From assembly GCA_049472275.1 (NCBI GenBank), contig JBLIRL010000002.1:1-35921 (forward strand): DNA of 35,921 bases. Reading direction: 5' to 3'. Positions 20,561-35,921 of the stretch are shown here, in pieces. Below the pieces are notes generated by a model, which was not told the DNA's origin, ran no database searches, and saw only the letters and a list, made by a program, of their open reading frames with translations. Within the stretch, counting starts at the first letter, position 1; every line of letters begins with the position of its first letter. The stretch comes from Thermoplasmatota archaeon (GTDB taxonomy: Archaea; Thermoplasmatota; Penumbrarchaeia; Penumbrarchaeales; Penumbrarchaeaceae). Position numbers and translations under genes: made by a program.

Positions 20561-20569
20561 CTCACCTCC

Positions 20570-22213: not shown

Positions 22214-22287
22214 GAGCACCACCGGATGATGGTCGGGAGAACGATCCGGGGACCGGCCCCTTCCACGGGAGGGGGCCTAATAATCAC

Positions 22288-22637: not shown

Positions 22638-22771
22638 CGTTATCAGATCAAAATACAATTCTCTATGGTTATTAAGTACGGGATGTTTTTGTATTATTGG
22701 AGGAAAAACGAAATAACGGTCCGACCCTGCATGTCCAAAACGGATTAATAGACGGTAATTCATGAAATGCC
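22638..22771. promoter_or_regulatory. AT-rich divergent promoter region (small membrane protein leftward, FtsX-type permease rightward)
   Basis: ATTAATAG at 22744-22751 is centred ~24 nt upstream of ATG 22772, which would suggest a leaderless mRNA. Minus-strand CTTAATAACC lies at ~22672-22681. Confidence 0.35.
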
Positions 22772-25700
22772 ATGGAGCTGGTCCCGCCCGTACTCGTCCT
22801 GATAGCAGGCGGGGCGCCCGTAATCCTGCTCGTTCTGCTGTTAATCCTGGGCGTCTCGACATCCACGAACAGGGCGTCAATGATGCTCGGGCTGAGGCTC
22901 TTTGTACGGAATCTCAAGGAAGGCGCCTCCCGGATGATCCCGGTGGCGCTCCTCGCATCCATTGTCGTCTCATCGCTTTCCGTGGGGGACGGCCTTCTTC
23001 TGATGGTCGAACGGAATACGGATGCGAACCTATCCGGTGTTGATGTTGTCGTCTCCTTCCCCTCTCCCGTGGACAAATGGGTCATCCAGGGGTCGATCCC
23101 TGGCCCAGCAGGACCTGTTGCCGACTGGGATATGATGCTCTCCTATGACGGTATAGCAGAATCCGAACCGGCAGGGAGGAGGAACGATGTGAGGGTCATG
23201 GGAGTCTTCAACGGCGGGGAGACGATCCTCGGTATCCGGAGGGCGGTCAGCGGGGAGCTGGAGGAGTTGGAGGAAAGGACCGATGCCTACGTCAATCTCG
23301 AGATGGCACGGTCACTGGACCTTGAAAAGGGCGATACCTTTACCCTCTCGATATATGATAGGGGAGCTGCCCAGGACAATCTTCTGGGCTATTCATCAGA
23401 TTCCCTGCCCGTCGTTCAGCTGACGGTCGCCGACATCATAGCGAACAAGGGGATAGGGAGGTTCCGCCAGGATGCTCTTTCGAAGGTCGATCCGATCTGC
23501 GTGATGCATCATCACTACCTGAGGGACAGGCTCGGATTGATAGACGGTGTCAATACCATGCTCATCGATATGGAAGATGACAGGGTGGAGGAGGGCATCG
23601 ATCTCATAACCGAAAGTCTGGATGAATGGCTCACAATGGAAGACGCAGGTTTCAGGCTTGAGCTCAAGGACGACCGGATGATCCTGACCCACAGGGATTT
23701 CTTCTTCCATCCGGAGGATGTGGGATTGGACCCTGGTTCCGGGACGCTCTCCTATTTCGTTGACAGGTTGGACAAGGGCACCGTTGAAGACAATCCTGAT
23801 CCGCTTGGCCTTTCTTATTCAGTCGTCGTCGGCCTTCAGGACAATCACACATTCAGAGGAGATGGATACCCATCCCAACCACATTGGATATCCCCTTATA
23901 ATCTAACGAGGGGGGAGGTGATCGTCAACAACTGGACAGCTGAAAGGATGGAACTCGCTTCGGGGATTCCCCTCACGCTCACCTACAGGAGGGTCTCGGA
24001 ACTTGGTACACTGATGGAGGAGAAGAGGTCCTTCAAGGTAGCAAAGATAGTTCCAATGGAGCACTGGATGGCATGGGATGGCTGGATGCCCGATCTTCCC
24101 GGGATCACTGAAGCGCCGTCCTGCGGCGACTGGGACCCCTCCTTCGAAATTGACGTTGATTCACTCACCGACGGCGATTTCGAATACTGGGACGTGTACA
24201 GGACTGCGCCCAAATGCATGATCCATGTCGAAGATGCAAGGGAGATGTGGGGAGTGACCACGGGTAACACCACCCTTGTTGTCCTCAAGGAAGGAAACCT
24301 CACCTATGATGATCTCATAGCGCAGGAAGCGATCCTTTCAGAGCATATCACCGTTGAAAGCATGGGAGGTTCCGTGAGAAATGTCAGAAAGGAAGCGCTG
24401 GATTCATCAAGGGCAATGCTGATCTTTCCTGGAATGTTCCTGACGTTCGGCTCCATCATCATGATAGGATCCCTGCTCGTGCTCTACGCCCTGTTCAGGG
24501 ACCTGGCCGGTAAGCGAGCCCATACCTGGGGGATACTAAGGGCCGTTGGTGTCACCAGGAAGGACCTGCTCGTAACAGGGACCTTCGAAGCACTTGTTCC
24601 GATACTGGTCGGAGGCGGTCTCGGAATACCTTTAGGTTACATTATCGGATATGCCCTGAATCTCGGTCTCGGAAGTGCATGGTCGGATTCCGTGGAGGGG
24701 GCGGGTGTGCCCTTCTCGGTCTCAACCTCCACCATAACCATATCCCTGGGTCTTTCGGTCCTGTTCGGTCTTATCCTCGCCGTGGCATCCATCATCAGGG
24801 AGGCGATGGCAGCTCCCATCGCCAACATCAGGGACGAGGACCCGACAGTTTCCTCATTCGGGAGACGGGGCAGGGTCGGGATCATAATCGCCGGTCTGCT
24901 CATCATCGAATTCGGCCTGTGGGCACTAGCTGCCGGTTCAACCATCACCGGGATGACCTCGGCGGGATTCTTCGTGACGGGGTCAATACTGGTGTCGTCC
25001 GGATCCGGACTTCTCCTCTACCTTCTGATTGCCAGGGTGCGCTACAGGTCCGATCTTTCGCTGATGGTCTCCTCCAACCTCTCGAGGAGACCCGGCAAGA
25101 ATCCGCTGTCGATAGCCATACTGTCCCTCATGCTGACCCTGGCCCTCTCACTTACTTTCATGGGCTCGCTCCTTGAGGAGGATGTTTCCTCTTCATATGA
25201 TGAATACGGGGGAGGATTCGCTTGGGTGGTCGAAACGGCGATCCCCCATCGAGGCGAGGTCGAGCTCCCAGGTATGGAGGTCTCCGTCCTTCTCTCGATA
25301 GGCGAGGAAGGAGGCACCTGCTCGAACATCAATGCACCTTACCCGCCCAGGCTTCTCGGTGTGGAGGATGATTTCCATCTGGTTTCCGATTTCGGACTCC
25401 TTTCCAGACTCGACAGGTTCGGATCGGACGGGGACGTATGGACGGGGCTCGATTCGGAGATAGACGGCAGGATACCGATCCTTGTTGACCAGAACACTTT
25501 GCTGTGGATCTACTACGAGGATCTCGGATCGGAGTTCAAACTGGATTCAGAGGACGGCACGGAATTGACGCTTGTTGTGGTAGGCATCCTCGAGCCGTCG
25601 GTGCTCACAGGAACCTTCGTTCTCTCCAAATCCATAATGAAGCAGTGGTTCCCGTCAATGGCAAGGCCGACCTATTTTCTGATATCCGGTGATGGAGTCG

Positions 25701-26185
25701 AGGAGGAAAGGGAGAAGATATCCGAGGCCTTTTCGGATTCCCTCCCGAAGATCGAATGGGTGGGAGAGCTTGCAAGAGAGAACCTGGATTACGAGCTGTC
25801 CTACCTGTATCTGTTTCGTGATTTTCTTATGTTCGGCCTTTTGGTTGCCATGGCATCAGCGGCAATATTCGCACATGCAAGGGCTCTTTCGCTGAGGAAG
25901 GAGATGATCTCGCTCCGGTCCATCGGTGTCACCAGGATAAGGTCGGTGCAGTACTTCCTTGCAGAGAACATGGTCGTGTTCTCCGTTGCCACGGTCGCAT
26001 CTGTCGCCGGTTCGGTGATATCGATATTGATCTTCGGCGGCCTTGGCGGGGGCGCTCCTTCTCCTGGAACCTCTATCCCGTCGGCGATCGTGATAGGGGC
26101 CTTTCTTCTCGTATCCCTCATCGTGAGCCTGATATCATCAATGACAGCGATCCGCTCTTTCTCCGGCCTAACCCACAGGAACTGA
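22772..26185 (+). CDS. ABC-transporter-type permease with two FtsX/MacB-like domains and two large extracytoplasmic domains, 1,137 aa
   Basis: MMLGLRLFVRNLKEGASRM resembles the classical FtsX-family N-terminus, so an alternative start at ATG 22880 is plausible. First FtsX module: MLIFPGMFLTFGSIIMIGSLLVLYALFRDLAGKRAHTWGILRAVGVTRKDLL. Second module: YLYLFRDFLMFGLLVAMASAAIFAHARALSLRKEMISLRSIGVTRIRSVQYFLAENMV. About 10 TM helices in total. No ATPase gene is adjacent. Confidence 0.8.
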   Translation: MELVPPVLVLIAGGAPVILLVLLLILGVSTSTNRASMMLGLRLFVRNLKEGASRMIPVALLASIVVSSLSVGDGLLLMVERNTDANLSGVDVVVSFPSPVDKWVIQGSIPGPAGPVADWDMMLSYDGIAESEPAGRRNDVRVMGVFNGGETILGIRRAVSGELEELEERTDAYVNLEMARSLDLEKGDTFTLSIYDRGAAQDNLLGYSSDSLPVVQLTVADIIANKGIGRFRQDALSKVDPICVMHHHYLRDRLGLIDGVNTMLIDMEDDRVEEGIDLITESLDEWLTMEDAGFRLELKDDRMILTHRDFFFHPEDVGLDPGSGTLSYFVDRLDKGTVEDNPDPLGLSYSVVVGLQDNHTFRGDGYPSQPHWISPYNLTRGEVIVNNWTAERMELASGIPLTLTYRRVSELGTLMEEKRSFKVAKIVPMEHWMAWDGWMPDLPGITEAPSCGDWDPSFEIDVDSLTDGDFEYWDVYRTAPKCMIHVEDAREMWGVTTGNTTLVVLKEGNLTYDDLIAQEAILSEHITVESMGGSVRNVRKEALDSSRAMLIFPGMFLTFGSIIMIGSLLVLYALFRDLAGKRAHTWGILRAVGVTRKDLLVTGTFEALVPILVGGGLGIPLGYIIGYALNLGLGSAWSDSVEGAGVPFSVSTSTITISLGLSVLFGLILAVASIIREAMAAPIANIRDEDPTVSSFGRRGRVGIIIAGLLIIEFGLWALAAGSTITGMTSAGFFVTGSILVSSGSGLLLYLLIARVRYRSDLSLMVSSNLSRRPGKNPLSIAILSLMLTLALSLTFMGSLLEEDVSSSYDEYGGGFAWVVETAIPHRGEVELPGMEVSVLLSIGEEGGTCSNINAPYPPRLLGVEDDFHLVSDFGLLSRLDRFGSDGDVWTGLDSEIDGRIPILVDQNTLLWIYYEDLGSEFKLDSEDGTELTLVVVGILEPSVLTGTFVLSKSIMKQWFPSMARPTYFLISGDGVEEEREKISEAFSDSLPKIEWVGELARENLDYELSYLYLFRDFLMFGLLVAMASAAIFAHARALSLRKEMISLRSIGVTRIRSVQYFLAENMVVFSVATVASVAGSVISILIFGGLGGGAPSPGTSIPSAIVIGAFLLVSLIVSLISSMTAIRSFSGLTHRN

Positions 26186-26203
26186 AGGTATTCCTCCATA
26201 ACG

Positions 26204-26210
26204 TATAAAT
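26204..26210 (+). promoter_or_regulatory. TATA-like box (TATAAAT) ~27 nt upstream of ATG 26234; possible internal promoter giving a leaderless transcript
   Basis: No SD-like motif precedes ATG 26234, and the TATA-to-ATG spacing matches the archaeal TATA-to-TSS distance. Confidence 0.3.
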
Positions 26211-26233
26211 CGGAATGATACAGCTTCGTACCC

Positions 26234-27520
26234 ATGGATGATCGTCCGGGGGGACCGTCACAATTCCCGATATTGGCCATAGCGGCGGTCCTTCTAATCT
26301 CCGTTGGAATATCCTCGGTCAGTGCCGGGGGTGACTGGATCTCCTTCAGGGGGAACTTGCAGAATACCGCTGCCTCGCACCAGGACCCCGGCAATCTCAC
26401 AAAGAGGTGGGAGTTCGAGGCCGATTCGTCCATAACGACCTCTGTCGTCATCGGTGACGGGTATTCCATCTTCGGTACATTCAACGGTAGCGTGTATCGA
26501 CTGGATACGAATGACGGGGCCGTCCAGTGGGAGATGAACCTGGATGCCCCGGTCCAATCTACACCCGCATTGGATACCAAGAGAGGGGCTGTTTACATAT
26601 GCGACAGCTCGGGGACCGTGACCAGCCTCCATCTCGTGAACGGAACCGTGAAATGGCAGTGGGTTCCCGAGGACGGGAACGACATACGGTCCTCCCCTCT
26701 GGTTGACGACAAGATCTATTTCGGGTCCTACGACTCCTATCTTTATGCTCTCGAGACCGATGGGAGACTGGCATGGAGGTTCGAAGGATGTCTCGGATGG
26801 ATACACACCTCACCGTCAAAAATGGGCGATATGGTCTATTTCGGATCATGCGACGGTATGATGAGGGCCGTCTCCGCTAGTACCGGAGAGGAGGTGTGGA
26901 ACTTCACATCCGCATACATTCCGTCCTCCCCAGCAATATCCGAAGGTAGAGTATATTTCGGGGCTTATGACTCCAATTTCTATTGTATCGATGCCTACAA
27001 CGGCAGCTTGATCTGGAACACGACACTCGGTAACAACATCTATTCATCTCCTTCCGTGAACGGAGAAAGTGTGGTTGTTGGCTGTGATGACGGCAAGCTC
27101 TACTGCATGGATGCCGGATCTGGTGATGTGCAGTGGGTCTTGGACCTCGGCCCTTCTCCGCTGGAGAGCTCCCCGCTTATAGCAGGGGGGCGCACCATGG
27201 TCTGTTATGATCAGGGAATGATCGTTGCGGACCTGGAGAGCGGTATTGTCAAACAGAGGTTCCTGTGGGGGAACAGCGCCGATGTTTCACCCTCGACCGG
27301 CAGAGGGCTGGTCCTTTTCGGGGATGCGCAGGGCTATGTATACTGCCTCGAGAGCGGCAAGGTAGTGGATGATGACGATGACATGCTGGACCTCAACGAT
27401 GAGGTGGATGCGAGGAGGGACGTCATCTTCTTTGCGGTCGGTATGTTCCTTGTCGTCAACGTACTACTGTTCGTTTTCCTCAGAAAATACAGAAAGATCA
27501 GAAAGAACAGCAGGGATTGA
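26234..27520 (+). CDS. PQQ-like (BamB-type) beta-propeller repeat protein, signal peptide plus C-terminal TM anchor, 428 aa
   Basis: Repeated blades: GSVYRLDTNDGAVQWE, GTVTSLHLVNGTVKWQW, YLYALETDGRLAWRF, GMMRAVSASTGEEVWNF, NFYCIDAYNGSLIWN, GKLYCMDAGSGDVQWV, GYVYCLE. N-terminal FPILAIAAVLLISVGISSVSA. C-terminal poly-Asp, then VIFFAVGMFLVVNVLLFVFL and a basic tail. Confidence 0.8.
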   Translation: MDDRPGGPSQFPILAIAAVLLISVGISSVSAGGDWISFRGNLQNTAASHQDPGNLTKRWEFEADSSITTSVVIGDGYSIFGTFNGSVYRLDTNDGAVQWEMNLDAPVQSTPALDTKRGAVYICDSSGTVTSLHLVNGTVKWQWVPEDGNDIRSSPLVDDKIYFGSYDSYLYALETDGRLAWRFEGCLGWIHTSPSKMGDMVYFGSCDGMMRAVSASTGEEVWNFTSAYIPSSPAISEGRVYFGAYDSNFYCIDAYNGSLIWNTTLGNNIYSSPSVNGESVVVGCDDGKLYCMDAGSGDVQWVLDLGPSPLESSPLIAGGRTMVCYDQGMIVADLESGIVKQRFLWGNSADVSPSTGRGLVLFGDAQGYVYCLESGKVVDDDDDMLDLNDEVDARRDVIFFAVGMFLVVNVLLFVFLRKYRKIRKNSRD

Positions 27521-27613
27521 ACATTTGGGAATGTCCCCATAACCCTTATGTACAATGTCCCGTAATTGACTGGCTGTAGGGATGGGGTGGTCGTCTACAT
27601 CCGGGGGATCGTG

Positions 27614-29296
27614 ATGGGAACCTTGAAGCAATGGAATTTTGGATGGACCGGATTGTTTCCGGGTTTCCTTATTGTTATGTTAACGATAGCTTCATTGATA
27701 ACTCCTCTTCGATCGGACGGAGTGTGGACCGAATGGCGGGGCGACCCTCTTCATCTGGCCGAGGTGACCGGGGAGCTTCCCCCTGTAGGGGAGTTGATCT
27801 GGTCGTATCAGACCGGTGATCAGGTCCTCTCATCATCCGTTTTCTACGACGGGGGAATGCTCATCGGGTCTGACGACGGCAATATCTACTGCATGGAACT
27901 CGATACCGGAGAGGTCCTCTGGAAATTCAAGACATCGGGCTCCGTTCAGGCAACACCGATGATAAGGGACGGAAAGGCGTACTTCGGGTCCTTCGATGAG
28001 AACCTCTACTGCATCTCGCTACCGGAAGCGGGAAGCGGGGGAAGCGCTTCGCTTGTCTGGAACGTCACACTCCACGGCCAGGTCCTCTCATCCTGCCACT
28101 GGTATGTCGATTCCGTCATAACGGCAGACAACTCAGGACGTCTTTACAGAGTTGACGCATCGGGAAACATCCTCTGGGAGACAGACCTTTCTGACCTGGA
28201 CATATGGGCCTCACCTCTCATACTCGAGGAGGAGGGGAGGGCGCTCATAGGGGATATCGGCAGCAGGCTGTGGCTCGTGGACCTCGAGGAAGGCGACGTC
28301 GTCTGGGAGAAGACTTTCGAGGGGAGCACCGAACTTTATTCATCAGGCACCTACCAAAACGGGGTCTATTACACCCCGGGAGGCCTTGATGAGAAGTTCT
28401 ACGCCGTACGGGTCTCCGATGGAGAGGTCCTCTGGTCCTTCGACTGCGGACATGCCGCGTATTCAACACCCGTCATCCGAGATGACCGCATCTATTTCGG
28501 TTCATTCGAGATCATGTGGTGCATCCCACTTGAGGACCCGGACGGAAACGGCAACATATCTGCAGAGGAGGTGATCTGGTCGTCACCGACGAATGATTAT
28601 CAGGGCGGATCCTCACCTCTCGTTGTCGGGGGAAGGGTCTATATCGGATCGGACGACTGGAACCTGTACTGTTTCGACAGCGATACCGGCGAGGAGATAT
28701 GGACCTTCGAGACGAAGGGGTATATCTACTCGTCGCCGGCTCTATACGGGGAAAGGATCTATTTCGGATCCTCCGACAGGAACATATACTGCTTAGGTGA
28801 GAGGCCTCCCGGTCTGGTTATCGAGGCTGTTCCCGACCTGAGGGAGATGACCTCCGACAACACCACCCGAATCACGATTACCGTTTCGGACGACGAGGGA
28901 AGTCCTGTAGGGGAGGCCGATGTGACCTTCACTTCATCTGCGGGTTTCATTGCCTTCGATGAAGAGGGAAACACAAGACTGGATCATATCACTGACAGCG
29001 AGGGCAGACTCATCGTCTACTACATTCCCGTCCAGGTCAGTTCAAGATCGACAATAGATATCAACATCAGGGCCGAGAAAACCGGGCTCAGCTCCTCCAC
29101 CCAGCTCCTCCAGGTCATAGTGGAACCGGGAGAGGGGGGAGGCCAATCGACAAACGAAGTGGGGGAGGATGTTGAAAAAAGGGTGCCTTACATAGCGGCC
29201 ATAATTATTCTCGTGATGGTCAACGTCATTCTCTTCCTGGTCGTAATGGTCTGGTTCATCCGCAACAGATACGAGGACCGGGAGGTGGGAAATTGA
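27614..29296 (+). CDS. PQQ-like beta-propeller repeat protein with a C-terminal Ig-like (Big_1-like) domain and TM anchor, ~560 aa
   Basis: Blades: GNIYCMELDTGEVLWKF, NLYCISL, GRLYRVDASGNILWE, RLWLVDLEEGDVVWE, KFYAVRVSDGEVLWSF, NLYCFDSDTGEEIWTF, NIYCLG. Ig-like module: TRITITVSDDEGSPVGEADVTFTSSAG...RLIVYYIP. TM: YIAAIIILVMVNVILFLVVMVWFI. The ORF track starts at TTG 27566; I prefer in-frame ATG 27614 (MGTLKQWNFGWTGLFPGFLIVMLTIASLI). Confidence 0.8.
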   Translation: MGTLKQWNFGWTGLFPGFLIVMLTIASLITPLRSDGVWTEWRGDPLHLAEVTGELPPVGELIWSYQTGDQVLSSSVFYDGGMLIGSDDGNIYCMELDTGEVLWKFKTSGSVQATPMIRDGKAYFGSFDENLYCISLPEAGSGGSASLVWNVTLHGQVLSSCHWYVDSVITADNSGRLYRVDASGNILWETDLSDLDIWASPLILEEEGRALIGDIGSRLWLVDLEEGDVVWEKTFEGSTELYSSGTYQNGVYYTPGGLDEKFYAVRVSDGEVLWSFDCGHAAYSTPVIRDDRIYFGSFEIMWCIPLEDPDGNGNISAEEVIWSSPTNDYQGGSSPLVVGGRVYIGSDDWNLYCFDSDTGEEIWTFETKGYIYSSPALYGERIYFGSSDRNIYCLGERPPGLVIEAVPDLREMTSDNTTRITITVSDDEGSPVGEADVTFTSSAGFIAFDEEGNTRLDHITDSEGRLIVYYIPVQVSSRSTIDINIRAEKTGLSSSTQLLQVIVEPGEGGGQSTNEVGEDVEKRVPYIAAIIILVMVNVILFLVVMVWFIRNRYEDREVGN

Positions 29297-30495
29297 ACGG
29301 GAATATCTGCCTGCCCCGACTGCTTGCTATAATGATGCTTGCTCTCCCGCTCCTTGGTCTTCCAGGATCGGGTGGCCCCTCCGAAATAGAACCCTCGAAT
29401 ATCGAGGTACTATGGAAGTACACCAAGGAAGATAACGAGGCGACTTTCTGGAAACTTGACTGGTCCCCGGACGGGAACCTCATCGCGGCAACGTTCTTCG
29501 ACGACAGATGCGTGATTCTGAACGCCGCCGATGGCAGTGTGTTCAAGGAGCTCGACCTCTCCCTCCCCAGGACAAGGTGCGATGGCTTCGCACCTGACAG
29601 CCTGAACCCTCTCAGGGCGTGCTGCTTCTCACCCGATGGCAAATATCTTGCGGTTGGGGGAGACGACCTTGTGGTCATGGTCTACGATACGGAATCCTGG
29701 GAGGTCAAGTACGAGCTCACGGGGCACACCGGGTCCATACTCGCACTCGATTTCTCCCCTGACGGAGAATATCTCGCGTCCGGATCCGGGACGGACAAGG
29801 TCATACCCCAGAACGCCGGAGAGAACCAGACCAGGATATGGGATATGGAGACTGGAGAGCAGGTACTGGTTCTGGGTGGTCACAGGGACGGAGTGCTGGC
29901 AGTGAAGTGGTCAAACGGCGGGGACAGGCTTGCGACGGCCTCGGACGACAGGACCCTCAGGATCTGGGAAATACCTTCGGGCAAGGAATTGATGAACACC
30001 AGCGGACACACTTCCGGTATTCTGGATGTTGACTGGACCCCCGACGATCAGATGTTGATCACCGGGTCGAGGGACTACAAGATCAAGGTATGGAACGCCT
30101 CAACCGGAGAAACCCGGAGCACATGGTCCGATTACAACTGCGTGAGGTCGGTGGATGTTCACCCCACCGGGACATACGCTGCGACCTCAGGTGTCGACCT
30201 CACATTGAAGATAAGGGATATGGGAACGGGGACGGAGCTTAAGGTCGTCAAGGACGGGGTCGAGCAGCATGCAATGGTGATGTCCTCCAGATGGTCCCCG
30301 GACGGGAGGCTTCTCGCTTCCGGTCTTGGCAAGAGCCACACGGTGATACTGTACGGCTTCGGTTCGGAGAGCAGCGATGGGGGCGTCATATCCACGGGGA
30401 CCATTACCTGGATAGTGATCGGGACCATCTCCGTGGTCTTCATCCTGGCACTGTTCTATCCCCTGAGATGGACCATCAGGAGGAGGAGACCTTGA
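29293..30495 (+). CDS. WD40-repeat beta-propeller protein predicted to be extracytoplasmic (signal peptide plus C-terminal TM anchor), 400 aa
   Basis: WD repeats: LTGHTGSILALDFSPDGEYLASGS, GGHRDGVLAVKWSNGGDRLATASDDRTLRIWE, GHTSGILDVDWTPDDQMLITGSRDYKIKVWN, VRSVDVHPTGTYAATSGVDLTLKIRD, SSRWSPDGRLLASG. N-terminus MNGNICLPRLLAIMMLALPLLGLPGSG; C-terminal TM ITWIVIGTISVVFILALFYPL followed by RRRR. TTG start overlaps the upstream stop (TTGA), with GGAGGTGG ~6 nt upstream. Confidence 0.78.
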   Translation: MNGNICLPRLLAIMMLALPLLGLPGSGGPSEIEPSNIEVLWKYTKEDNEATFWKLDWSPDGNLIAATFFDDRCVILNAADGSVFKELDLSLPRTRCDGFAPDSLNPLRACCFSPDGKYLAVGGDDLVVMVYDTESWEVKYELTGHTGSILALDFSPDGEYLASGSGTDKVIPQNAGENQTRIWDMETGEQVLVLGGHRDGVLAVKWSNGGDRLATASDDRTLRIWEIPSGKELMNTSGHTSGILDVDWTPDDQMLITGSRDYKIKVWNASTGETRSTWSDYNCVRSVDVHPTGTYAATSGVDLTLKIRDMGTGTELKVVKDGVEQHAMVMSSRWSPDGRLLASGLGKSHTVILYGFGSESSDGGVISTGTITWIVIGTISVVFILALFYPLRWTIRRRRP

Positions 30496-31790
30496 GATCG
30501 AATGGTCTTGTTGTCCCTGCCGTCATAATTTCATTGATTTTGATGGTTGTACCTCCGGTCAGTGGAGAGGTCACTCCGGACCAGCTTACCTCGGGTATCG
30601 GGAGGTTCATGTCCATAATCTGCGAGGATGTGGATTCCGACGGAAGGATGGAGATCCTCTTCGGCTCCTACGATGGTTATGTGGTCTCGGTGGAGCATTA
30701 TGCCGGAGAATATCAGGTCGACTGGACATCCCCGAGGTACGGTACGAGGGTCTGGGGTCTCAGGGCAGGGCAGTTCGATGACGATGAGAACATCGAGATA
30801 GTGATCGGTGACGGCGATGGTGAGGTCAGGGTCCTCGACGGTAAGACCAAGAAGGTCGAGTGGGAATCCGTGACACTGGTTCGGGACGCCCACGGAATAC
30901 TTCTACATGACCTAGACCATGACGGAAGTAACGAACTGATAGTGGGTACGGGGTTCAAGACCGATCAGGGCTGGGGGCAGGTCTACTTCTTCAAACCCGA
31001 CAGCCCTGAACCCTACGATACACTTCCTCCCTTCGATTCCAGATTGAGGGAGTTGGATGTCGTGGACGTCGACGGGGACGGCGAGGAGGAATTGATAGTC
31101 TGCTCGGGTGTCTCACTCGGTGATATCAGAGGTGAAGGATACATACGGGTGTTCGACCTGGCAACAAAGAAGCTCGAATGGAAGAGCCCGGACCTTCAAG
31201 GCTGCACCGAGGGACTCAAGGTCATCGACCTGGAAGGAGACGGGACGCTCGAGATCGTCGTCTCCAACGGATACAGGTACCGTGAGGGATGGTGTTACAT
31301 TTTCAGGTACGACGGAACGGATTACAGAAGGATCTGGAGGAGCGAGAACCTTGGACCCAAGGCTTACGGTCTGGATGTCGCCGACATTGACAACGACGGT
31401 ACCCTGGAGATAGTGGTATCGAACATGGACGGCCACATATTCGTTTACGATGGTGTCACCAGGCAGCTCGAGTGGAAGTCAAAGAACCTCGGCAGGGATA
31501 TCCTGGGGATAACCATCGCCGATCCGGACAAGGACGGACAGCTCGAGATCATTGCTGGCCAAGGAGGCTACAACGGCAAGGGAGACTTCACATCGGGATA
31601 CGTTACACCGCATGTTTACATCATAGACGGGAGCACCAAGGAGATAGAGGAGGTGATGGGAGAGGTCGATCCGGTCCTGCAGTGGCTCAAGGTAGCCACG
31701 TACGTCCTAGTCGGGATCGTTCTCGTTCAGGCCGCGGTCCTTTCCAGATTGTGGCTCAGGCACATCAGGAATCGGGGGGCAAGGAAATGA
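30492..31790 (+). CDS. FG-GAP/VCBS (integrin-alpha-like) beta-propeller repeat protein, signal peptide plus C-terminal TM anchor, ~432 aa
   Basis: Seven Ca-binding-type repeats: DVDSDGRMEILFGS, DDDENIEIVIGDGDG, DLDHDGSNELIVGTG, DVDGDGEEELIVCSG, DLEGDGTLEIVVSNG, DIDNDGTLEIVVSNMDG, DPDKDGQLEIIAGQG. I trimmed the 499-aa ORF to TTG 30492, giving (M)RSNGLVVPAVIISLILMVVPPVSG. That start overlaps the WD40 stop (TTGA) and follows GGAGGAGGAG. C-terminal TM: VATYVLVGIVLVQAAVL. Confidence 0.75.
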   Translation: MRSNGLVVPAVIISLILMVVPPVSGEVTPDQLTSGIGRFMSIICEDVDSDGRMEILFGSYDGYVVSVEHYAGEYQVDWTSPRYGTRVWGLRAGQFDDDENIEIVIGDGDGEVRVLDGKTKKVEWESVTLVRDAHGILLHDLDHDGSNELIVGTGFKTDQGWGQVYFFKPDSPEPYDTLPPFDSRLRELDVVDVDGDGEEELIVCSGVSLGDIRGEGYIRVFDLATKKLEWKSPDLQGCTEGLKVIDLEGDGTLEIVVSNGYRYREGWCYIFRYDGTDYRRIWRSENLGPKAYGLDVADIDNDGTLEIVVSNMDGHIFVYDGVTRQLEWKSKNLGRDILGITIADPDKDGQLEIIAGQGGYNGKGDFTSGYVTPHVYIIDGSTKEIEEVMGEVDPVLQWLKVATYVLVGIVLVQAAVLSRLWLRHIRNRGARK

Positions 31791-32782
31791 AGGGGACCTA
31801 CAAGGGGAGGAACATCAGACCCTTCAGGTTCCTGGTCCAGCTGATCGGACTCGGTTTCATGTTCGGACAGATGCTCGGTCTCCCGCCATTCGGTACGCAT
31901 CCGCTTCTTCGCAGGATATTCCTGCCGAATGCTTCATGCCGGTATATCAACGAAGCTCCGACCTCATGCTACTACTATCAGCTGCAGGATGGTCTTACCC
32001 AGGGGTACACGAACGCCTACATAGACGTAATAATCATGGTCCTGATAGTACTCCTGCTTATAATCATCCTGGGAAGGATGTGGTGCTCCTGGCTCTGTCC
32101 CTTCGGTCTCGTGCAGGAGGGACTGACAAAGCTCCGAGAGCTCACGGGCCTCCCGCCGTTGAAAATGAAATGGAGGACGAGGGTAGTACTGAGACGGGTG
32201 AAGTACACGCTCCTCTTCTTCACCGTGCTGTTCTCGATCCCTATCGGGATCTCGGCGCTGGGCATCCTGGACTGCCAGTCCACACTCGCACTGCCGTTCT
32301 GCCAGGTCTGCCCCGCAAAAGGTTTCTTCACGGTTTCCCAGCAGGTCCTTGGGCTGGAACCATGGTCAACTACCCTGCCCTGGCTTGCGCTTGGGTCCCT
32401 GGGACTCTTTCTGATCTCCGGGTTCTTCATCGAGATGGCTTTCTGCAGAATCTGTCCGATGGGAGGCGTGATGGCTCTTATGAGCAGGTTCTCCCTGCCC
32501 TGGCTGAGGAAGGATCCGAACAAATGCACGAAATGCAGGATATGCCTCAGGGTCTGCCCACTTGACCATGATCGCGTTTACGAGGATATGAAGGCTGACG
32601 ATGTCGGCAGCGAGGATTGCACACTGTGCGGTAAATGCGTGGAAATGTGCCCGGAGGAAGGATGCCTGACGCTGATGTACGGTCCTATTTCGGTTAAAAG
32701 TTCTAAAAGACCGAGGAAGATGGGGCTCTCGAGACTGATCGACAGAATCAAAAAAGACACGGAGGCGGGAAATGGAAAGTGA
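31787..32782 (+). CDS. NapH/NosR/MauN-type integral-membrane polyferredoxin (4 TM, CxxCP motifs, C-terminal 2x[4Fe-4S]), ~331 aa
   Basis: I trimmed the ORF to ATG 31787, which forms an ATGA overlap with the upstream stop. Motifs: WCSWLCPFG, FCQVCPAKG and FCRICPMG at the ends of TM helices; C-terminal CTKCRICLRVCP and CTLCGKCVEMCP. Four hydrophobic helices. Confidence 0.75.
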   Translation: MKGTYKGRNIRPFRFLVQLIGLGFMFGQMLGLPPFGTHPLLRRIFLPNASCRYINEAPTSCYYYQLQDGLTQGYTNAYIDVIIMVLIVLLLIIILGRMWCSWLCPFGLVQEGLTKLRELTGLPPLKMKWRTRVVLRRVKYTLLFFTVLFSIPIGISALGILDCQSTLALPFCQVCPAKGFFTVSQQVLGLEPWSTTLPWLALGSLGLFLISGFFIEMAFCRICPMGGVMALMSRFSLPWLRKDPNKCTKCRICLRVCPLDHDRVYEDMKADDVGSEDCTLCGKCVEMCPEEGCLTLMYGPISVKSSKRPRKMGLSRLIDRIKKDTEAGNGK

Positions 32783-34112
32783 AGGCCCAAGATACCTCAA
32801 GGACAAGGATGGATACTTCTCCCAGGAACAGAGGGACCGGACCAAGAAGAGATCCAAGGAGATGGAGTCTTCGGTCAGTTCCACGTTGAAGAAGCAGAGG
32901 AACCGACCTAGATCCATGGCGTACTTCGATGAGGTCCACAAGTACGGCGGCGCGCGCTATCACGAGCTCAAGGAGTTCCATGACAAGGGAGGGAAGATCG
33001 TGGGAACTCTCTGTGTGATGGTCCCGCTGGAACTCATCTATGCAGCAGGAGGAGAGGCTGTCAGGATGTGCTCCGGATATTACGAACCTGTCCATCCGGC
33101 CAACGAGCTGCTCGGGGATGCGGGCCTCTGCCCCATGGTCAAATCGACGCTTGGGACGAAGATGGTCTCCTCCAATCCCCTGGTGGATTTGATCGACCTC
33201 GTCGCCGGACCGGCAACCTGTGATGGAAAGATGAAGCTGGCAGAGATATTGGAGGACTGGGTACCGGTCGTGATGATGAACATCCCCAGGGTGAAGGTCG
33301 GGGACACCTCCTCGGACCTGTGGGTCAAGGAGCTTATACACCTCAAGCGGAACCTCGAAGACCTGACTGGACGACAGATAAGGAAGAGGGCGCTCATCGC
33401 CGAGATTAAGAAGTGGAACGAGGCAAACCAGCACTGGTCCGAGCTACTCGAGATGAGAAAATCCCAAAAACCTCCGATCTCCGGCAGGGATGCGATGCTG
33501 GTGGTCCAGGCGACCCAGTTCGATCATATCGGAAGATGGAACAAGAAGGTCCGAGAGCTCATCGCGGAGCTCAGGGAGATCCAGAAGAAAGGACTTTTCG
33601 CCGGTGAGGAAGGGGCGGCCAGGGTCCTGCTCTCCGGTTCTCCCATGATGTACCCCAACTTCAAGATCCCCTCGATCATAGAGGAATCGGGCGGGACCAT
33701 CGTGACCGACGAACTTTGCACGGGCTACCGGCTCATGGCGGACCCCGTCATGGTCGACGGTCTGTCCAAAAAGGAGATCTACCAGGCCCTCGCAGACAGG
33801 TACTTCTTCCCATGCACCTGCCCCTGCTTCTCCCCCAATGACGAGAGGGTCCGGAGAATGAAGGAGGCCATCAAGGCCTTCGGTATCGAAGGGGTTGTCT
33901 TCCATACACTCAGAGGCTGTCATCTCAACAACCTCGAGGCCACAAAGATCGAACTCTCGCTAAGGGAAGAGGGGATACCAATGCTCAAGCTAGAGAGCGA
34001 ATACGACGAGGGTGATATCGAGCAGGTCAGAACGAGGGTCGAGGCATTCGTCGAGATGATCAAGGCAAGAAGGGAGTTCAGAATGTCACATCCTTCGGAG
34101 GGCAAAAAGTGA
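32772..34112 (+). CDS. 2-hydroxyacyl-CoA dehydratase / benzoyl-CoA reductase BcrB/C-family subunit (possible double-cubane-cluster-type protein), 446 aa
   Basis: Family-typical layout GGKIVGTLCVMVPLELIYAAGGEAVRMCSG, GLCPMVKS, PATCDGKMK, RVLLSGSPMMYP, DELCTGYR, FFPCTCPCF, VFHTLRGCH. There are at least 7 conserved-looking Cys. ATG 32772 overlaps the upstream gene by 11 nt and follows GGAGG. The first ~48 aa are basic and low-complexity, so ATG 32916 (MAYFDEV) is an alternative start. Confidence 0.72.
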   Translation: MESEGPRYLKDKDGYFSQEQRDRTKKRSKEMESSVSSTLKKQRNRPRSMAYFDEVHKYGGARYHELKEFHDKGGKIVGTLCVMVPLELIYAAGGEAVRMCSGYYEPVHPANELLGDAGLCPMVKSTLGTKMVSSNPLVDLIDLVAGPATCDGKMKLAEILEDWVPVVMMNIPRVKVGDTSSDLWVKELIHLKRNLEDLTGRQIRKRALIAEIKKWNEANQHWSELLEMRKSQKPPISGRDAMLVVQATQFDHIGRWNKKVRELIAELREIQKKGLFAGEEGAARVLLSGSPMMYPNFKIPSIIEESGGTIVTDELCTGYRLMADPVMVDGLSKKEIYQALADRYFFPCTCPCFSPNDERVRRMKEAIKAFGIEGVVFHTLRGCHLNNLEATKIELSLREEGIPMLKLESEYDEGDIEQVRTRVEAFVEMIKARREFRMSHPSEGKK

Positions 34113-34999
34113 CGGAAGGAGAGAGTGAGAGAGGACCCTACGACCTGGGCATCGATGTCGGAGCAATAAGCACCAAGCTGCTGATGATGAAGGAGGGGAA
34201 GGTCGAGGGTACAACTATTTCCAACACATCCATGGAACCGGGGAAGCTGGCCGAGAAGTTGAGGGAAGAGCTGCTATCATCCATGGGTCTGAAGAATAAG
34301 GATATCGGATATACAGTTGCCACCGGTCAGGGACGGAGGTCCGTTGAGTTCGCTGACATGGCCAGGACCGACATCACCACATTCGCCCGGGGAGCCCACA
34401 GTCTTGATCCGGATGTTGATATCGTTGTTGATATCGGAGGACACGGGATCAGGGTCATGAAGATGGGAGAGATGGGCATCATATCCGATTTCAGGACGAA
34501 CGACAAATGCTCTACGGGGACCGGCTGCTTCATGGATACGATGGCAATGGCCCTGGAGGTCCAGATAGAGGATGCGGGGGAGAGATCGCTCCACTCCAAA
34601 CTTGCCGAGCATGTCAACGCCACCTGTACTGTATTCGCGGAATCGGAGGTGGTTTCCCTCATTGCCAAGGGTAAGGCCACAGAGGACATACTTGCGGGCC
34701 TTCATCAGATGGTGGCCCGCAAGATAGTGGCACTTGTGAACTCCACACAGTCCAAGGGCAAGGTCCTTGTCTGCGGCGGTGTGGCAAGGAACGCCGGGGT
34801 GGTGGAGGAGATAAGAAAGACCCTAAACCGGGAGATGGTTGTGCCGGAGATGCCTCATATGGTGGGAGCGCTCGGAGCTGCTTTGATGGCACCGCGGCCG
34901 AGGAACGCCCTAAAGCCGGAGCAGGAGTTCAAAGCACAGGAGGAGACCAGGGTTCAGACGACCACCTTCCTTGACAGATTGCTGAGGTGGAAGGCATGA
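34109..34999 (+). CDS. HgdC/BcrA-D (BadF/BadG/BcrA/BcrD) family ATPase, activator (archerase) subunit 1, 296 aa
   Basis: Acetate/sugar-kinase-fold phosphate motifs LGIDVGAISTKLLMM and VVDIGGHGIRVMKM. Bridging-cluster Cys motifs NDKCSTGTGCFMD and ATCTVFAESEVVSL. GGVARNAGVV. GTG start in a GTGA overlap, preceded by GGAGGG. Confidence 0.85.
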   Translation: MTEGESERGPYDLGIDVGAISTKLLMMKEGKVEGTTISNTSMEPGKLAEKLREELLSSMGLKNKDIGYTVATGQGRRSVEFADMARTDITTFARGAHSLDPDVDIVVDIGGHGIRVMKMGEMGIISDFRTNDKCSTGTGCFMDTMAMALEVQIEDAGERSLHSKLAEHVNATCTVFAESEVVSLIAKGKATEDILAGLHQMVARKIVALVNSTQSKGKVLVCGGVARNAGVVEEIRKTLNREMVVPEMPHMVGALGAALMAPRPRNALKPEQEFKAQEETRVQTTTFLDRLLRWKA

Positions 35000-35784
35000 T
35001 CACCGCAGGTGTGGACCTCGGATCGACCTACGTGAAGGCGGCCATAGTCAAGGATTGGCAGAGGGTTGGCCATGGCGTTTCCCCGACCGGACATGATCAC
35101 GATGTGACGTCAAAGAAGGTCCTGGAGTCCGCCCTGGAGATGGCGAGCCTCCGGATGGAGGAGATAGACCACATCGTTTCAACGGGATACGGCAGGAGGG
35201 TTACGAGCCTTGCACACTCGAATATCAGCGAGATCTCAGCGAATGCCAGGGGGGTTCAGTGGCTTGGATCCGAGCTCGGGGTCAGGACAATTATCGATAT
35301 CGGAGGCCAGGATACCAAGGTCATCGCCCTTGACGACGACCTCCAGATGATAAATTTCGCCATGAACGATAAATGCGCTGCCGGAACCGGCAGGTTCCTC
35401 GAGGTCCTTGCAAGGGTCCTCGAGGTTCCGCTGGACGACATGGGTCCGGTGTCTCTTAAGAGCAAGGACCCTGTTGACATCACCACAACCTGCCTCGTAT
35501 TCGCGAAATCGGAGGTGGCCAACCTGATCTTCCAGGGTTACCCCAAGGAGGACATCATAATGGGCATCCACAAAGCGGTCGCGAGAAGGCTTGTGGCCAT
35601 GGCTAAGAAGGTCGGTGTCCGAGATGTCGTCTTCTTCGATGGAGGACCTGCGAAGAACATCGGTATGGTCCATGCAATGGAAAGGGAGCTCGGCAGGAAG
35701 ATGTACGTTCCGGACATGCCTCAGATCGTCACGGCGACCGGGGCTGCTATCCTCGCGGCGGAGGAGCTCGGCAGGAAGAAGTGA
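34996..35784 (+). CDS. HgdC/BcrA-D family ATPase, activator (archerase) subunit 2, ~262 aa
   Basis: MITAGVDLGSTYVKAAIV, IIDIGGQDTKVIAL, NDKCAAGTGRFLE, TTCLVFAKSEVANL, GGPAKNIGMV. I prefer ATG 34996 (ATGA overlap with the upstream stop, GAGGTGG upstream) over the track start at GTG 34987. Confidence 0.85.
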   Translation: MITAGVDLGSTYVKAAIVKDWQRVGHGVSPTGHDHDVTSKKVLESALEMASLRMEEIDHIVSTGYGRRVTSLAHSNISEISANARGVQWLGSELGVRTIIDIGGQDTKVIALDDDLQMINFAMNDKCAAGTGRFLEVLARVLEVPLDDMGPVSLKSKDPVDITTTCLVFAKSEVANLIFQGYPKEDIIMGIHKAVARRLVAMAKKVGVRDVVFFDGGPAKNIGMVHAMERELGRKMYVPDMPQIVTATGAAILAAEELGRKK

Positions 35785-35785
35785 A

Positions 35786-35790
35786 TTTTT
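35786..35790 (+). terminator. Oligo-T tract (TTTTT) immediately after the operon's last stop codon; candidate archaeal terminator
   Basis: The sequence reads TGA-A-TTTTT-CATATTGATT. It is the first T-run after roughly 8 kb of overlapping or closely spaced genes. Confidence 0.3.
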
Positions 35791-35841
35791 CATATTGATT
35801 ACCTGGAAAGGAATTTCTACCGGTTGTCCCCTGCCTGATCG

Positions 35842-35921
35842 ATGAGGAGACCGATCGATACGCACGGGCCGTCCTTCTATCTATCGGTACTGATGATCAT
35901 GCTGATTTCGGTGATGATATC
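35842..35921 (+). CDS. Start of a hypothetical membrane protein (partial, runs off the window)
   Basis: ATG 35842 gives MRRPIDTHGPSFYLSVLMIMLISVMI..., a charged n-region followed by a hydrophobic stretch. Only 26 codons are visible. Confidence 0.25.
   Translation, partial: MRRPIDTHGPSFYLSVLMIMLISVMI

Follow-up and report, generated by a model that had tools for sequence, protein, structure and literature searches.

The stretch of DNA considered here, the window, comprises positions 1 to 35,921 (35,921 nucleotides) of contig JBLIRL010000002.1 from a Thermoplasmatota archaeon (assembly GCA_049472275.1). Nine consecutive open reading frames (ORFs) on its forward strand, g0 to g8, span 22772-35784 and encode, in order, an FtsX-type permease, two PQQ-like propellers, a WD40 propeller, an FG-GAP propeller, a NapH-like iron-sulfur (Fe-S) protein with four transmembrane (TM) helices, a double-cubane cluster protein (DCCP) and two archerase ATPases (Table 1). 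The nine genes form a conserved and probably physically coupled module. An earlier reading, made from the sequence only, had proposed a unit of seven genes, g2 to g8. All seven do lie on one strand with translationally coupled junctions, and the conserved unit is larger, at nine genes: g0 and g1 share the strand of g2-g8, are set apart by intergenic gaps of 48 nucleotides (g0/g1) and 93 nucleotides (g1/g2), and both co-occur in orthologous loci.

The six junctions from g2 to g8 are start/stop overlaps, each located where the sequence-only reading had placed it. GGAGG-like motifs lie 5-12 nucleotides 5' of the starts of g3 (GGGAGGTGG), g4 (AGGAGGAGGAG), g6 (CGGAGGCGG), g7 (CGGAGGGC) and g8 (TGAGGTGGAAGG), and a weaker Shine-Dalgarno motif (GGGGGGCAAGGAA) precedes the ATG of g5 at 31787, as that reading had also described. 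The TTG and GTG starts are supported by independent public gene calls in orthologous loci (L001, L002/L003, L007), which give 4-nucleotide overlaps at most of the same junctions.

Table 1. Features of the window, numbered from its first nucleotide (aa, amino acids; nt, nucleotides)
Feature	Position	Strand	Details
g0, FtsX-type duplicated permease, 1137 aa	22772-26185	+	Pfam FtsX 1.2e-10; weak ADOP and MacB matches
g1, PQQ_2/BamB-like beta-propeller, 428 aa	26234-27520	+	PQQ_2 2.8e-52
g2, second PQQ_2-like propeller with membrane-proximal Ig-like (Big_1-like) domain, 560 aa	27614-29296	+	C-terminal TM anchor
g3, WD40 propeller, 400 aa	29293-30495	+	WD40 8.3e-51; signal peptide and C-terminal TM anchor
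g4, seven-bladed FG-GAP/integrin-like propeller, 432 aa	30492-31790	+	FG-GAP_3 1.8e-21; C-terminal TM anchor
g5, NapH-like 4-TM Fe-S protein, 331 aa	31787-32782	+	Fer4_5 x2, Fer4_10
g6, DCCP (HGD-D fold), 446 aa	32772-34112	+	HGD-D PF06050 1.8e-96 over 81-430
g7, archerase-type ATPase (BcrAD_BadFG), more divergent paralogue, 296 aa	34109-34999	+	TIGR00241 194 against cut-off of 125 bits
g8, archerase-type ATPase, 262 aa	34996-35784	+	TIGR00241 236 against cut-off of 125 bits
g2/g3 junction	29293-29296		TTGA
g3/g4 junction	30492-30495		TTGA
g4/g5 junction	31787-31790		ATGA
g5/g6 junction	32772-32782		11-nt overlap ATGGAAAGTGA
g6/g7 junction	34109-34112		GTGA
g7/g8 junction	34996-34999		ATGA
TATA-like box TTAATA	22745-22750	+	22-27 nt 5' of g0 ATG; candidate promoter, read from sequence
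TATAAA	26204-26209	+	25-30 nt 5' of g1 ATG; possible internal promoter, read from sequence
TTTTT, candidate archaeal oligo-T terminator	35786-35790	+	2 nt past g8 stop
Start of truncated ORF	35842-35921	+	begins MRRPIDTHGPSFYLSVLMIMLISVMI; compared by translation with family f18
Sub-threshold match to C/D-box sRNA sR42	30557-30617	-	opposite g4
Mechanical ORF, 163 aa	22389-22880	-	overlaps g0 start; no family match
Type I polyketide synthase (PKS)/fatty acid synthase-like ORF, 3551 aa	468-11123	-	NMO-like, KS, AT, three PP-binding, KR, two PKS dehydratase domains, C-terminal 4'-phosphopantetheinyl transferase
Protein of 306 aa	11439-12359	-	Fer4_16/Fer4_7 double-cluster domain
Predicted surface protein, 1195 aa	12494-16081	+	transglutaminase-core/Big-domain
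Predicted surface protein, 498 aa	17093-18589	+	four fn3 domains
Acyl-CoA dehydrogenase (550 aa), EtfB (268 aa), EtfA (399 aa)	18558-22222	-	EtfA with N-terminal 2x[4Fe-4S] ferredoxin domain; set Bcd/Etf-like, divergent from cluster

The cytoplasmic end of the unit is a putative ATP-driven redox module. The g6 protein passes the NCBIfam double-cubane model (NF040772) by a narrow margin (354.6 bits against a cut-off of 350) and aligns end to end, without large gaps, to the DCCP of C. hydrogenoformans (6ENO/7YYL; E 1e-70). Its seven-cysteine motif is complete (C81-X18-C100-X19-C120-X29-C150-X165-C316-X33-C350-X32-C383), each cysteine being aligned to one in 6ENO, and two of the spacings are one residue off the published pattern. 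It is predicted to hold an [8Fe-9S] double-cubane cluster. The product had earlier been called a 'HAD-family' protein; its place in the HGD-D family stands, and within that family it is specifically a DCCP. Two other enzyme types were considered and rejected. Class I benzoyl-CoA reductases require two HGD-D subunits where g6 is one, and the corresponding models score far under their cut-offs (BcrC 77 against 421 bits, BzdN 75 against 454, BzdO 31 against 449). A 2-hydroxyacyl-CoA dehydratase is likewise at odds with a single subunit, a HadC score of 88 against 700 bits and the lack of any CoA-activating gene in the cluster, where, as previously remarked, neither a CoA-ligase nor a CoA-transferase gene is present.

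Both ATPases retain the hallmarks of archerases. The g7 protein aligns over its full length to HadI (4EHT) and keeps NDKCSTGTG and ATCTVFAESE, including both cluster-bridging cysteines; g8 aligns to the same structure (E 5e-63) with both bridging cysteines kept, so that the motifs conserved in the pair read NDKC(S/A)xGTG and xTCxVFA(E/K)SE. The most conserved gene of the set is g8, with a median identity of 69% (34 loci). As g7 overlaps g6 and g8 overlaps g7, the two constitute a dedicated archerase partner for g6. DCCP/archerase systems make very low-potential electrons at the cost of ATP, along the route ferredoxin-type donor, ATPase, DCCP, substrate, and the physiological substrate of DCCPs is unknown (PMC7317905).

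The membrane component, g5, belongs by architecture to a group of modular transmembrane electron conduits, the NapH-like proteins (PMC8238504). Its best NCBIfam matches are NapH (NF007013) and NapH/MauN (TIGR02163), both below cut-off (84.2 against 234 bits and 79.1 against 213 bits). Hydropathy calls TM2 to TM4, whereas TM1 (~17-36) falls below the threshold and rests on a helix of the AlphaFold model (pLDDT 72). Hydropathy, the positive-inside rule and AlphaFold agree on a predicted layout of four TM helices with the N-terminus, both Cys-Pro motifs and the ferredoxin domain in the cytoplasm. The experimentally determined topology of Escherichia coli NapH matches this predicted layout. The Cys-Pro motifs on the cytoplasmic face, CX3CP (C100, C104, P105) and CX2CP (C220, C223, P224), sit on K/R-rich loops, and the C-terminal domain contains two CxxCxxCxxxCP [4Fe-4S] motifs, both invariant in orthologs. 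The protein is thus no generic ferredoxin, the outcome that the sequence-only reading had named as one that would refute its redox module: it has four predicted hydrophobic helices, the CX3CP/CX2CP pair, a C-terminal 2x[4Fe-4S] domain and best family matches to NapH and NapH/MauN.

The predicted outer loops of g5 carry four further cysteines, C51, C61 and C172-x-x-C175-P. C61 and C175 are invariant among 27 orthologs, and all four are present in ~85% of 77 relatives, with or without an adjacent DCCP. In E. coli NapH the corresponding residues are S, D, E and N, and a CX3CP stands in place of the CX2CP of g5. The four cysteines make up a site, presumably facing outward, that is particular to this branch; it might bind a metal or an Fe-S cluster, or work as a redox-active dithiol pair. 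Given the sub-cut-off scores, the four extra loop cysteines and the lack of a NapG/NapA partner, g5 is NapH-like in architecture and not a NapH; no NapG, NapA/NapB or mau genes occur in the window or in any related locus examined. The earlier NapH-type label therefore agrees with the predicted topology and the motifs and is to be narrowed to NapH-like. A Foldseek comparison of the AlphaFold model with the PDB returned no match at E<=0.001.

The products of the remaining five genes are predicted to face the outside. Profile searches (Pfam, NCBIfam) confirmed the families assigned from the sequence. By hydropathy g0 has ~10 TM segments, with two FtsX domains and two large extracytoplasmic domains; its homologs accompany the cluster in 25 archaeal loci at 23-60% identity. 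No ABC ATPase or nucleotide-binding domain for it was found in the window, nor any Walker-A protein upstream in the relatives checked. Its start is placed at 22772 and could also be the internal Met near 22880. The mechanical ORF that overlaps this start on the other strand (Table 1) would encode a small hydrophobic two-helix peptide in its 3' part.

All four propellers, g1 to g4, begin with a signal or TM segment and end in a TM anchor with basic residues after it (hydropathy; in g1, 11-29 and 397-415), and they are therefore read as surface-anchored. The g1 gene is kept upstream of g2 in relatives. Both g1 and g2 match the non-enzymatic PQQ_2/BamB-like repeat. As PQQ dehydrogenases they fail clearly, with 59 and 48 bits against a cut-off of 480 for TIGR03075 and 25 and 31 bits against 833 for TIGR03074. 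In g3, 78 residues are conserved at 90% or more among 17 orthologs, and C96 and C283 are each kept in at least 90% of orthologs. The best conserved extracellular subunit is g4, with 115 residues at 90% or more (21 orthologs), identities of 42-81% in 84 loci and repeated DxDxD...E calcium-type motifs.

The linkage of these genes is conserved across archaea. Homologs of g5 were traced into public contigs, the alignment was scanned against one genome per GTDB species, and the nine proteins were compared with the resulting loci by tblastn. The closest relatives are Thermoplasmatota metagenome-assembled genomes (MAGs), with 83-84% identity in g5. The order and strand FtsX, PQQ(-PQQ), WD40, FG-GAP, NapH-like, DCCP, ATPases are common to MAGs of Thermoplasmata, Thermoplasmatota and Methanomassiliicoccales and to metagenome contigs. 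Among 89 non-duplicate archaeal loci, 68 contain at least three of the five central genes, 66 of these 68 being colinear on one strand, and 39 contain all five; identity to the window falls to 42% (g4), 32% (g5) and 39% (g6). A reciprocal test started from the FG-GAP propeller g4 and scanned JGI metagenome contigs, counting loci with enough flanking sequence. It recovered the NapH-like gene in 36/36, the DCCP in 25/25, the WD40 gene (upstream of g4) in 29/29, a PQQ propeller in 19/19, an ATPase in 15/19 and the FtsX-type gene in 5/8. The linkage is thus conserved and decidedly not peculiar to this contig; the sequence-only reading had named a linkage confined to this contig as an outcome that would refute it.

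Variation among the archaeal loci is informative in itself. In a marine clade (L004-L006 10957-13230; P0172-P0183; including a TARA contig) the DCCP is fused to the first ATPase in a protein of 732-765 residues (757 in one example), and this independent gene fusion argues that DCCP and ATPase work together. Most archaeal loci with a g4 identity of 67% or less have one more gene between those for the FG-GAP propeller and the NapH-like protein; its product, cysteine-rich and with several TM segments, is DsbD_2-like (hhalign 96.8%, E 2e-10). In marine-clade loci a DsbD_2 gene also adjoins the FtsX-type gene, which is inverted there. Methanomassiliicoccales-type loci carry Kelch-repeat propellers and PQQ-repeat proteins (~700-1560 residues) downstream of the DCCP. 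Recurrent flanking families in archaea are Kelch propellers, a GNAT acetyltransferase, a radical SAM protein and a small secreted protein. In the closest relatives (L001, L010, L011, L014) the ATPases are followed by a secreted protein of ~200 residues (f18) that has no Pfam or NCBIfam match; the truncated ORF at the end of the window is probably an ortholog of this lipobox-like protein.

Two further sets of loci were noted. Proteins labelled '[Eubacterium] cellulosolvens' (L151, P0067, P0204) come from a 12-kb contig, CDLUMC010000044.1, that has archaeal-type neighbours (AcnX swivel domain, DUF92) and carries a 256-residue ORF without a Pfam match, in a position like that of the DsbD_2-like gene, followed by NapH-like and DCCP genes; it is probably a mis-binned archaeal contig. 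In Bathyarchaeia (L046, L052, L057, L058, L062, L073, L079, L083) NapH-like proteins of 237-588 residues, mostly 540-590, lie beside a NosD-like beta-helix protein with no DCCP, and an unannotated ~190-residue protein (f19) is present in five of these eight loci; this is a different NapH-like module.

The core of the unit extends to bacteria, where a NapH-like gene, a DCCP gene and a single ATPase gene are adjacent in ~40 loci from Desulfobacterota, Syntrophales, Sedimenticolaceae, Alphaproteobacteria, Spirochaetes, Synergistaceae, Fibrobacteres, Planctomycetes and others. Neighbour clustering defines a recurrent operon of a TonB-dependent receptor, an anchored DUF4198-like protein, the NapH-like protein, the DCCP, the ATPase and a DsbD_2 protein, often with ExbB. 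The core genes are homologous to those of the window and in the same order (28-35% identity for g5, 28-42% for g6, 39-51% for g8), with capture proteins immediately upstream, but the TonB-dependent receptor, ExbB and a DUF4198 beta-sandwich replace the FtsX-type permease and the four propellers, the ATPase is single, and there are riboswitches and cob/cbi neighbours. The DUF4198 relative (f7) was identified by hhalign at 98.5%, and an alternative to it (f14) matches f7 at 95.8%; the Ig-like region of g2 (414-466) weakly resembles the beta-sandwich of f7 (hhalign 87%, E 4e-6, 48 columns). One member of the DUF4198 family is Zcp, which captures zinc in the periplasm (PMC13515064). In 19 bacterial loci the core comes with a DsbD_2 protein, and one cluster (L009) combines NapH-like, DsbD_2, DUF4198, TonB-dependent receptor and ExbBD-TonB genes without a DCCP. 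The existence of such a cluster makes the NapH-like/DsbD_2 pair look like the basic membrane unit and DCCP/ATPase like an added module. In a rough neighbour-joining tree the NapH-linked DCCPs form one clade on a long branch from the soluble DCCP of C. hydrogenoformans, with the archaeal propeller-linked DCCPs monophyletic inside it.

The bacterial operons offer a lead to function. An Rfam scan places a cobalamin riboswitch immediately 5' of the operon, and in its orientation, in 15/36 bacterial loci (67-117 bits against a gathering score of 31.5), and further units of riboswitch and TonB-dependent receptor are often nearby. Clusters so equipped would be turned off by vitamin B12. No riboswitch was found in L009, L039, L040, L048, L068, L074, L086 or L088, a group that includes the Myxococcota loci. 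Neighbouring genes encode CobN-like chelatase subunits (six loci), a CobD-type aminotransferase (four), CbiB (three) and BtuC/FecCD-type permeases (three), ~10 loci in all. The genes under cobalamin riboswitches are mostly those for cobalt transport and for the metabolism of cobalamin, and at times those for B12-independent isozymes (PMC7689651). With riboswitches upstream, cob/cbi/btu-type neighbours and a DUF4198 capture protein, the bacterial module belongs, by these sequence features, to a B12/cobalt regulon and to the cobalt/cobamide economy of the cell.

Some neighbouring bacterial units were recorded beside the operons. Units of cobalamin riboswitch, TonB-dependent receptor and CobN-like protein (1269-1374 residues) stand next to NapH-like/DCCP operons in L059 (13956-20255), L064 (13062-16871) and L054 (3496-7620). 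Pairs of a NapH-like paralogue and a PQQ_2 propeller occur in four bacterial loci from different phyla (L039 7303-9841, L068 5447-7976, L048 653-3281, L088 6664-9227); in three of the four they lie beside NapH-like/DCCP genes, an ABC ATPase gene is found upstream in L039 and L048, and an SBP_bac_11 importer precedes the pair in L039.

Taken together, the nine genes may encode one envelope-spanning machine that uses low-potential electrons, boosted by ATP, for the reductive acquisition of a trace metal or cofactor, which might be cobalt or a cobamide; this tentative reading is given a probability of about 0.45. Linkage conservation and the predicted NapH topology lend support to the more general proposal, already made from the sequence, of one conserved redox module. 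We infer that the proteins would come together in a physical complex. Outside the cell, the orphan FtsX-type permease and the four anchored propellers would form a capture platform. In the membrane, g5, with cysteine motifs on both faces and its cytoplasmic 2x[4Fe-4S] domain, would link this platform to the cytoplasm, acting in most relatives together with the DsbD_2-like protein. Inside, a heterodimeric g7/g8 archerase would hydrolyse ATP and push an electron onto the [8Fe-9S] protein g6. Low-potential electrons would then pass between g6 and the ferredoxin domain of g5, and, moving outward, would be spent at the membrane or its outer face, where a scarce species bound by the platform would be mobilised through its reduction. 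CcoG is a NapH-like cupric reductase, and the [8Fe-9S] cluster of class I benzoyl-CoA reductases serves as an electron relay. Because the bacterial operons pair the core with TonB-dependent receptors, DUF4198, DsbD_2, riboswitches and CobN/CbiB/BtuC-like genes, a trace metal or cofactor is the most likely substrate, and cobalt or a cobamide the leading candidate.

Several observations weigh against this acquisition machine, or against parts of it. No cobalamin riboswitch was found in the window or in five archaeal loci, and no cob/cbi/btu genes in any archaeal locus, so that the archaeal link to cobalt and cobamides comes by homology alone. Nor is a riboswitch found with the bacterial DCCPs closest to g6 (those of Sedimenticolaceae and Alphaproteobacteria, 40-42% identity), and in the tree the archaeal DCCPs branch as sister to the bacterial clades with riboswitches, not from within them. 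Upstream of the Myxococcota module lie an SBP_bac_11 ABC importer and a pair of NapH-like paralogue and PQQ_2 propeller; substrates therefore probably vary between lineages. The window contains no DsbD_2-like gene anywhere, the gene having been lost in its clade, and Methanomassiliicoccales-type loci (L024-L028, L030, L031, L033) have no archerase ATPase within 10 kb. The chemistry poses two difficulties of its own. The seventh cysteine that g6 keeps, a non-ligand residue near the active-site opening, fits a catalyst with its own substrate better than a pure relay, and the ATP boost would be wasted on an electron handed to ordinary [4Fe-4S] clusters, unless their potential is also very low. 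The safest generalisation would be the acquisition of a trace metal or cofactor with a reductive step, for which cobalt or a cobamide is the best specific candidate.

That cysteine leads to the strongest competing account, in which the substrate is first imported and then reduced. The platform and permease, with the DsbD_2-like protein where present, would capture and import it, the DCCP would be the terminal cytoplasmic reductase, for example of Co(II)/Co(III)-corrinoid to Co(I), and the NapH-like protein would be a tethered ferredoxin that docks archerase and DCCP at the import site and feeds the ATPase. Such an arrangement would preserve the established electron route of DCCP systems (PMC7317905) and suits a g6 that aligns without large gaps to the class-I DCCP of C. 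hydrogenoformans and has lost none of the seven cysteines, not even that at the active-site opening. Bacterial TonB-dependent receptors import and do not export, and the need for ATP to drive Co(II) to Co(I) is well established, with RACE-type activators to fill it (Table 1 of PMC7317905). The account leaves unexplained why g5 conserves four cysteines in loops predicted to lie outside, and why there are DCCP-free NapH-like + DsbD_2 + DUF4198 + TonB-dependent receptor clusters (L009), and it does not specify the electron source of the NapH-like protein. It is nearly as good an explanation as outward reduction at the membrane and the better fit to the retained active-site cysteine; taken by itself it is rather unlikely.

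Electrons might also travel inwards, a direction that the sequence-only reading had allowed for ('or the reverse'). The propellers would oxidise an extracellular donor, the NapH-like protein would carry the electrons in, and the ATPases would boost them so that the DCCP reduces a cytoplasmic acceptor of very low potential, in effect an ATP-driven reverse electron flow. NapH-like proteins do adjoin extracytoplasmic PQQ alcohol dehydrogenases, for which inward flow has been proposed (PMC8238504), and the pairs of NapH-like paralogue and PQQ_2 propeller in four bacterial loci point the same way. However, g1 and g2 are not PQQ dehydrogenases by the TIGR03075 scores above, the WD40 and FG-GAP propellers have no known redox cofactor, and the bacterial partners (TonB-dependent receptor, DUF4198, ExbB) are uptake proteins under B12 control, not oxidases. 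As the propellers are not quinoprotein enzymes, inward uptake is the less likely direction and improbable overall.

A last possibility is that an ordinary acyl-CoA radical enzyme with its activators, be it a 2-hydroxyacyl-CoA dehydratase or a class I benzoyl-CoA reductase, lies by chance near surface genes. It can draw on the HGD-D match of g6 and its weaker HadC, BcrC and BzdN matches, on public annotations of orthologs as '2-hydroxyacyl-CoA dehydratase' or 'BcrC/BadD/HgdB' and on the acyl-CoA dehydrogenase/EtfAB set upstream on the other strand. The conservation data and the failed family tests contradict it: two HGD-D subunits are required by either enzyme type where there is one, the scores for HadC, BcrC and BzdN stay at 75-88 bits (cut-offs 421-700) although g6 passes the double-cubane model, genes for a CoA ligase or transferase are absent, the propeller linkage holds in 36/36 and 25/25 loci at identities down to ~40%, and the acyl-CoA dehydrogenase neighbour recurs, again on the other strand, only in L001, the sole relative with an upstream neighbour identified. 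It is very improbable.

The sole run of five or more T on the forward strand within 22772-35921 is the TTTTT just past g8, in accordance with the earlier statement that a T-run terminator candidate comes only after 35784. Sense-strand T5 runs are scarce in all genes of the window (three in 21 kb; ~1.8 expected per 13 kb), which makes the lone TTTTT weak evidence for a single transcript, and the absence of internal T5 runs from the unit is not significant alone. Neither g0 nor g1 has a Shine-Dalgarno motif, whereas the internal genes carry one; together with the TATA-like boxes upstream of both, this would fit leaderless archaeal first genes. A scan for sigma-70 promoters and hairpin terminators, a type unsuited to an archaeon, gave matches near shuffle expectation. 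Searches of the cluster and of five archaeal relatives for tRNA genes and Rfam families found none, apart from one sub-threshold snoRNA match, that to sR42 (21.7 bits, gathering score 38, E 0.16), which is probably due to chance. Elsewhere in the window (Table 1), the long type I PKS-like ORF is unusual for an archaeon, and the acyl-CoA dehydrogenase set is transcribed divergently from the cluster.

Each component family of the unit is known, and the combination is new as far as the literature found goes. The sequence-only reading knew of no described system that joins these parts, and full-text searches have found none: nothing combines DCCP/HGD-D with NapH-like proteins, polyferredoxin, TonB, DUF4198 or a B12 riboswitch, although the classic B12-regulon paper (Rodionov et al., 2003) may mention the bacterial operon. 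The closest described system is the DCCP/DCCP-R pair of C. hydrogenoformans (6ENO, 7YYL/7YZM/7YZQ), which shares with the window the g6 fold, the NF040772 family, the seven-cysteine motif and an archerase family with both bridging cysteines. That system is soluble and two-component, with a homodimeric ATPase and no membrane partner, whereas the cluster here has two different ATPases (a heterodimer, or a fusion in relatives), an obligatory NapH-like partner, a frequent DsbD_2-like partner, lineage-specific extracytoplasmic capture machinery and a DCCP of a separate clade. Class I benzoyl-CoA reductases (Bcr, Bzd, Mbd; 8S02, 9G87/9GAI) likewise have a heterodimeric archerase that feeds a protein of the HGD-D fold, and g7 and g8 match MbdQ/MbdP well. 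They differ in having two HGD-D subunits (BcrB/C or BzdN/O) and an aryl-CoA substrate, where the cluster has one subunit and no CoA-pathway genes.

The membrane and surface components compare in a similar way. With NapH of NapGH, NosR/NosH, PceC/RdhC, MauN and CcoG, g5 shares, by prediction, four TM helices, a CX3CP after TM2, a second Cys-Pro motif after TM4 and the C-terminal cytoplasmic 2x[4Fe-4S] domain. It differs in that its second motif is CX2CP and not CX3CP, in its four extra outer-loop cysteines and in the absence of NapG/NapAB, an FMN-binding domain and nos or rdh genes; a DCCP/archerase partner has not been described for any NapH-like protein. The permease g0 resembles MacB/FtsX type VII ABC permeases and ADOP in its two FtsX domains and large extracytoplasmic domains, but falls far below the family cut-offs and has no ABC ATPase partner. 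In Bacteroides, BtuG, a surface beta-propeller lipoprotein, and accessory surface proteins capture B12 and hand it to a transporter (PMC6143338, PMC10404256, PMC13616437). This BtuG/BtuB/BtuH system is an analogy only to the surface propellers g1-g4, and it has no redox module.

DCCPs are widespread ATP-driven reductases with nitrogenase-like reactivity, and the bacterial B12 link is the first physiological lead for the family. A large DCCP clade is always paired with a NapH-like protein and capture proteins, and its place in a B12/cobalt regulon in bacteria turns its function into a testable question of cobalt/cobamide uptake and reduction. For NapH-like electron conduits, DCCP/archerase would be a new type of partner. 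In archaea, the cluster gives a conserved multi-propeller surface complex a plausible job and hints at how cytochrome-poor anaerobes might carry out redox chemistry at or across the membrane. It is possible, if still unlikely, that the module represents a new type of system, in which ATP-energised electrons of very low potential are wired from the double-cubane protein through an all-iron-sulfur/cysteine conduit, with no cytochromes or quinones, to the archaeal outer face, there reductively releasing or capturing cobalt, cobamides or an inert trace-metal complex on a four-propeller platform. If true, such outward wiring would be the first physiological function for the DCCP family and an archaeal functional counterpart of TonB-dependent reductive metal uptake.

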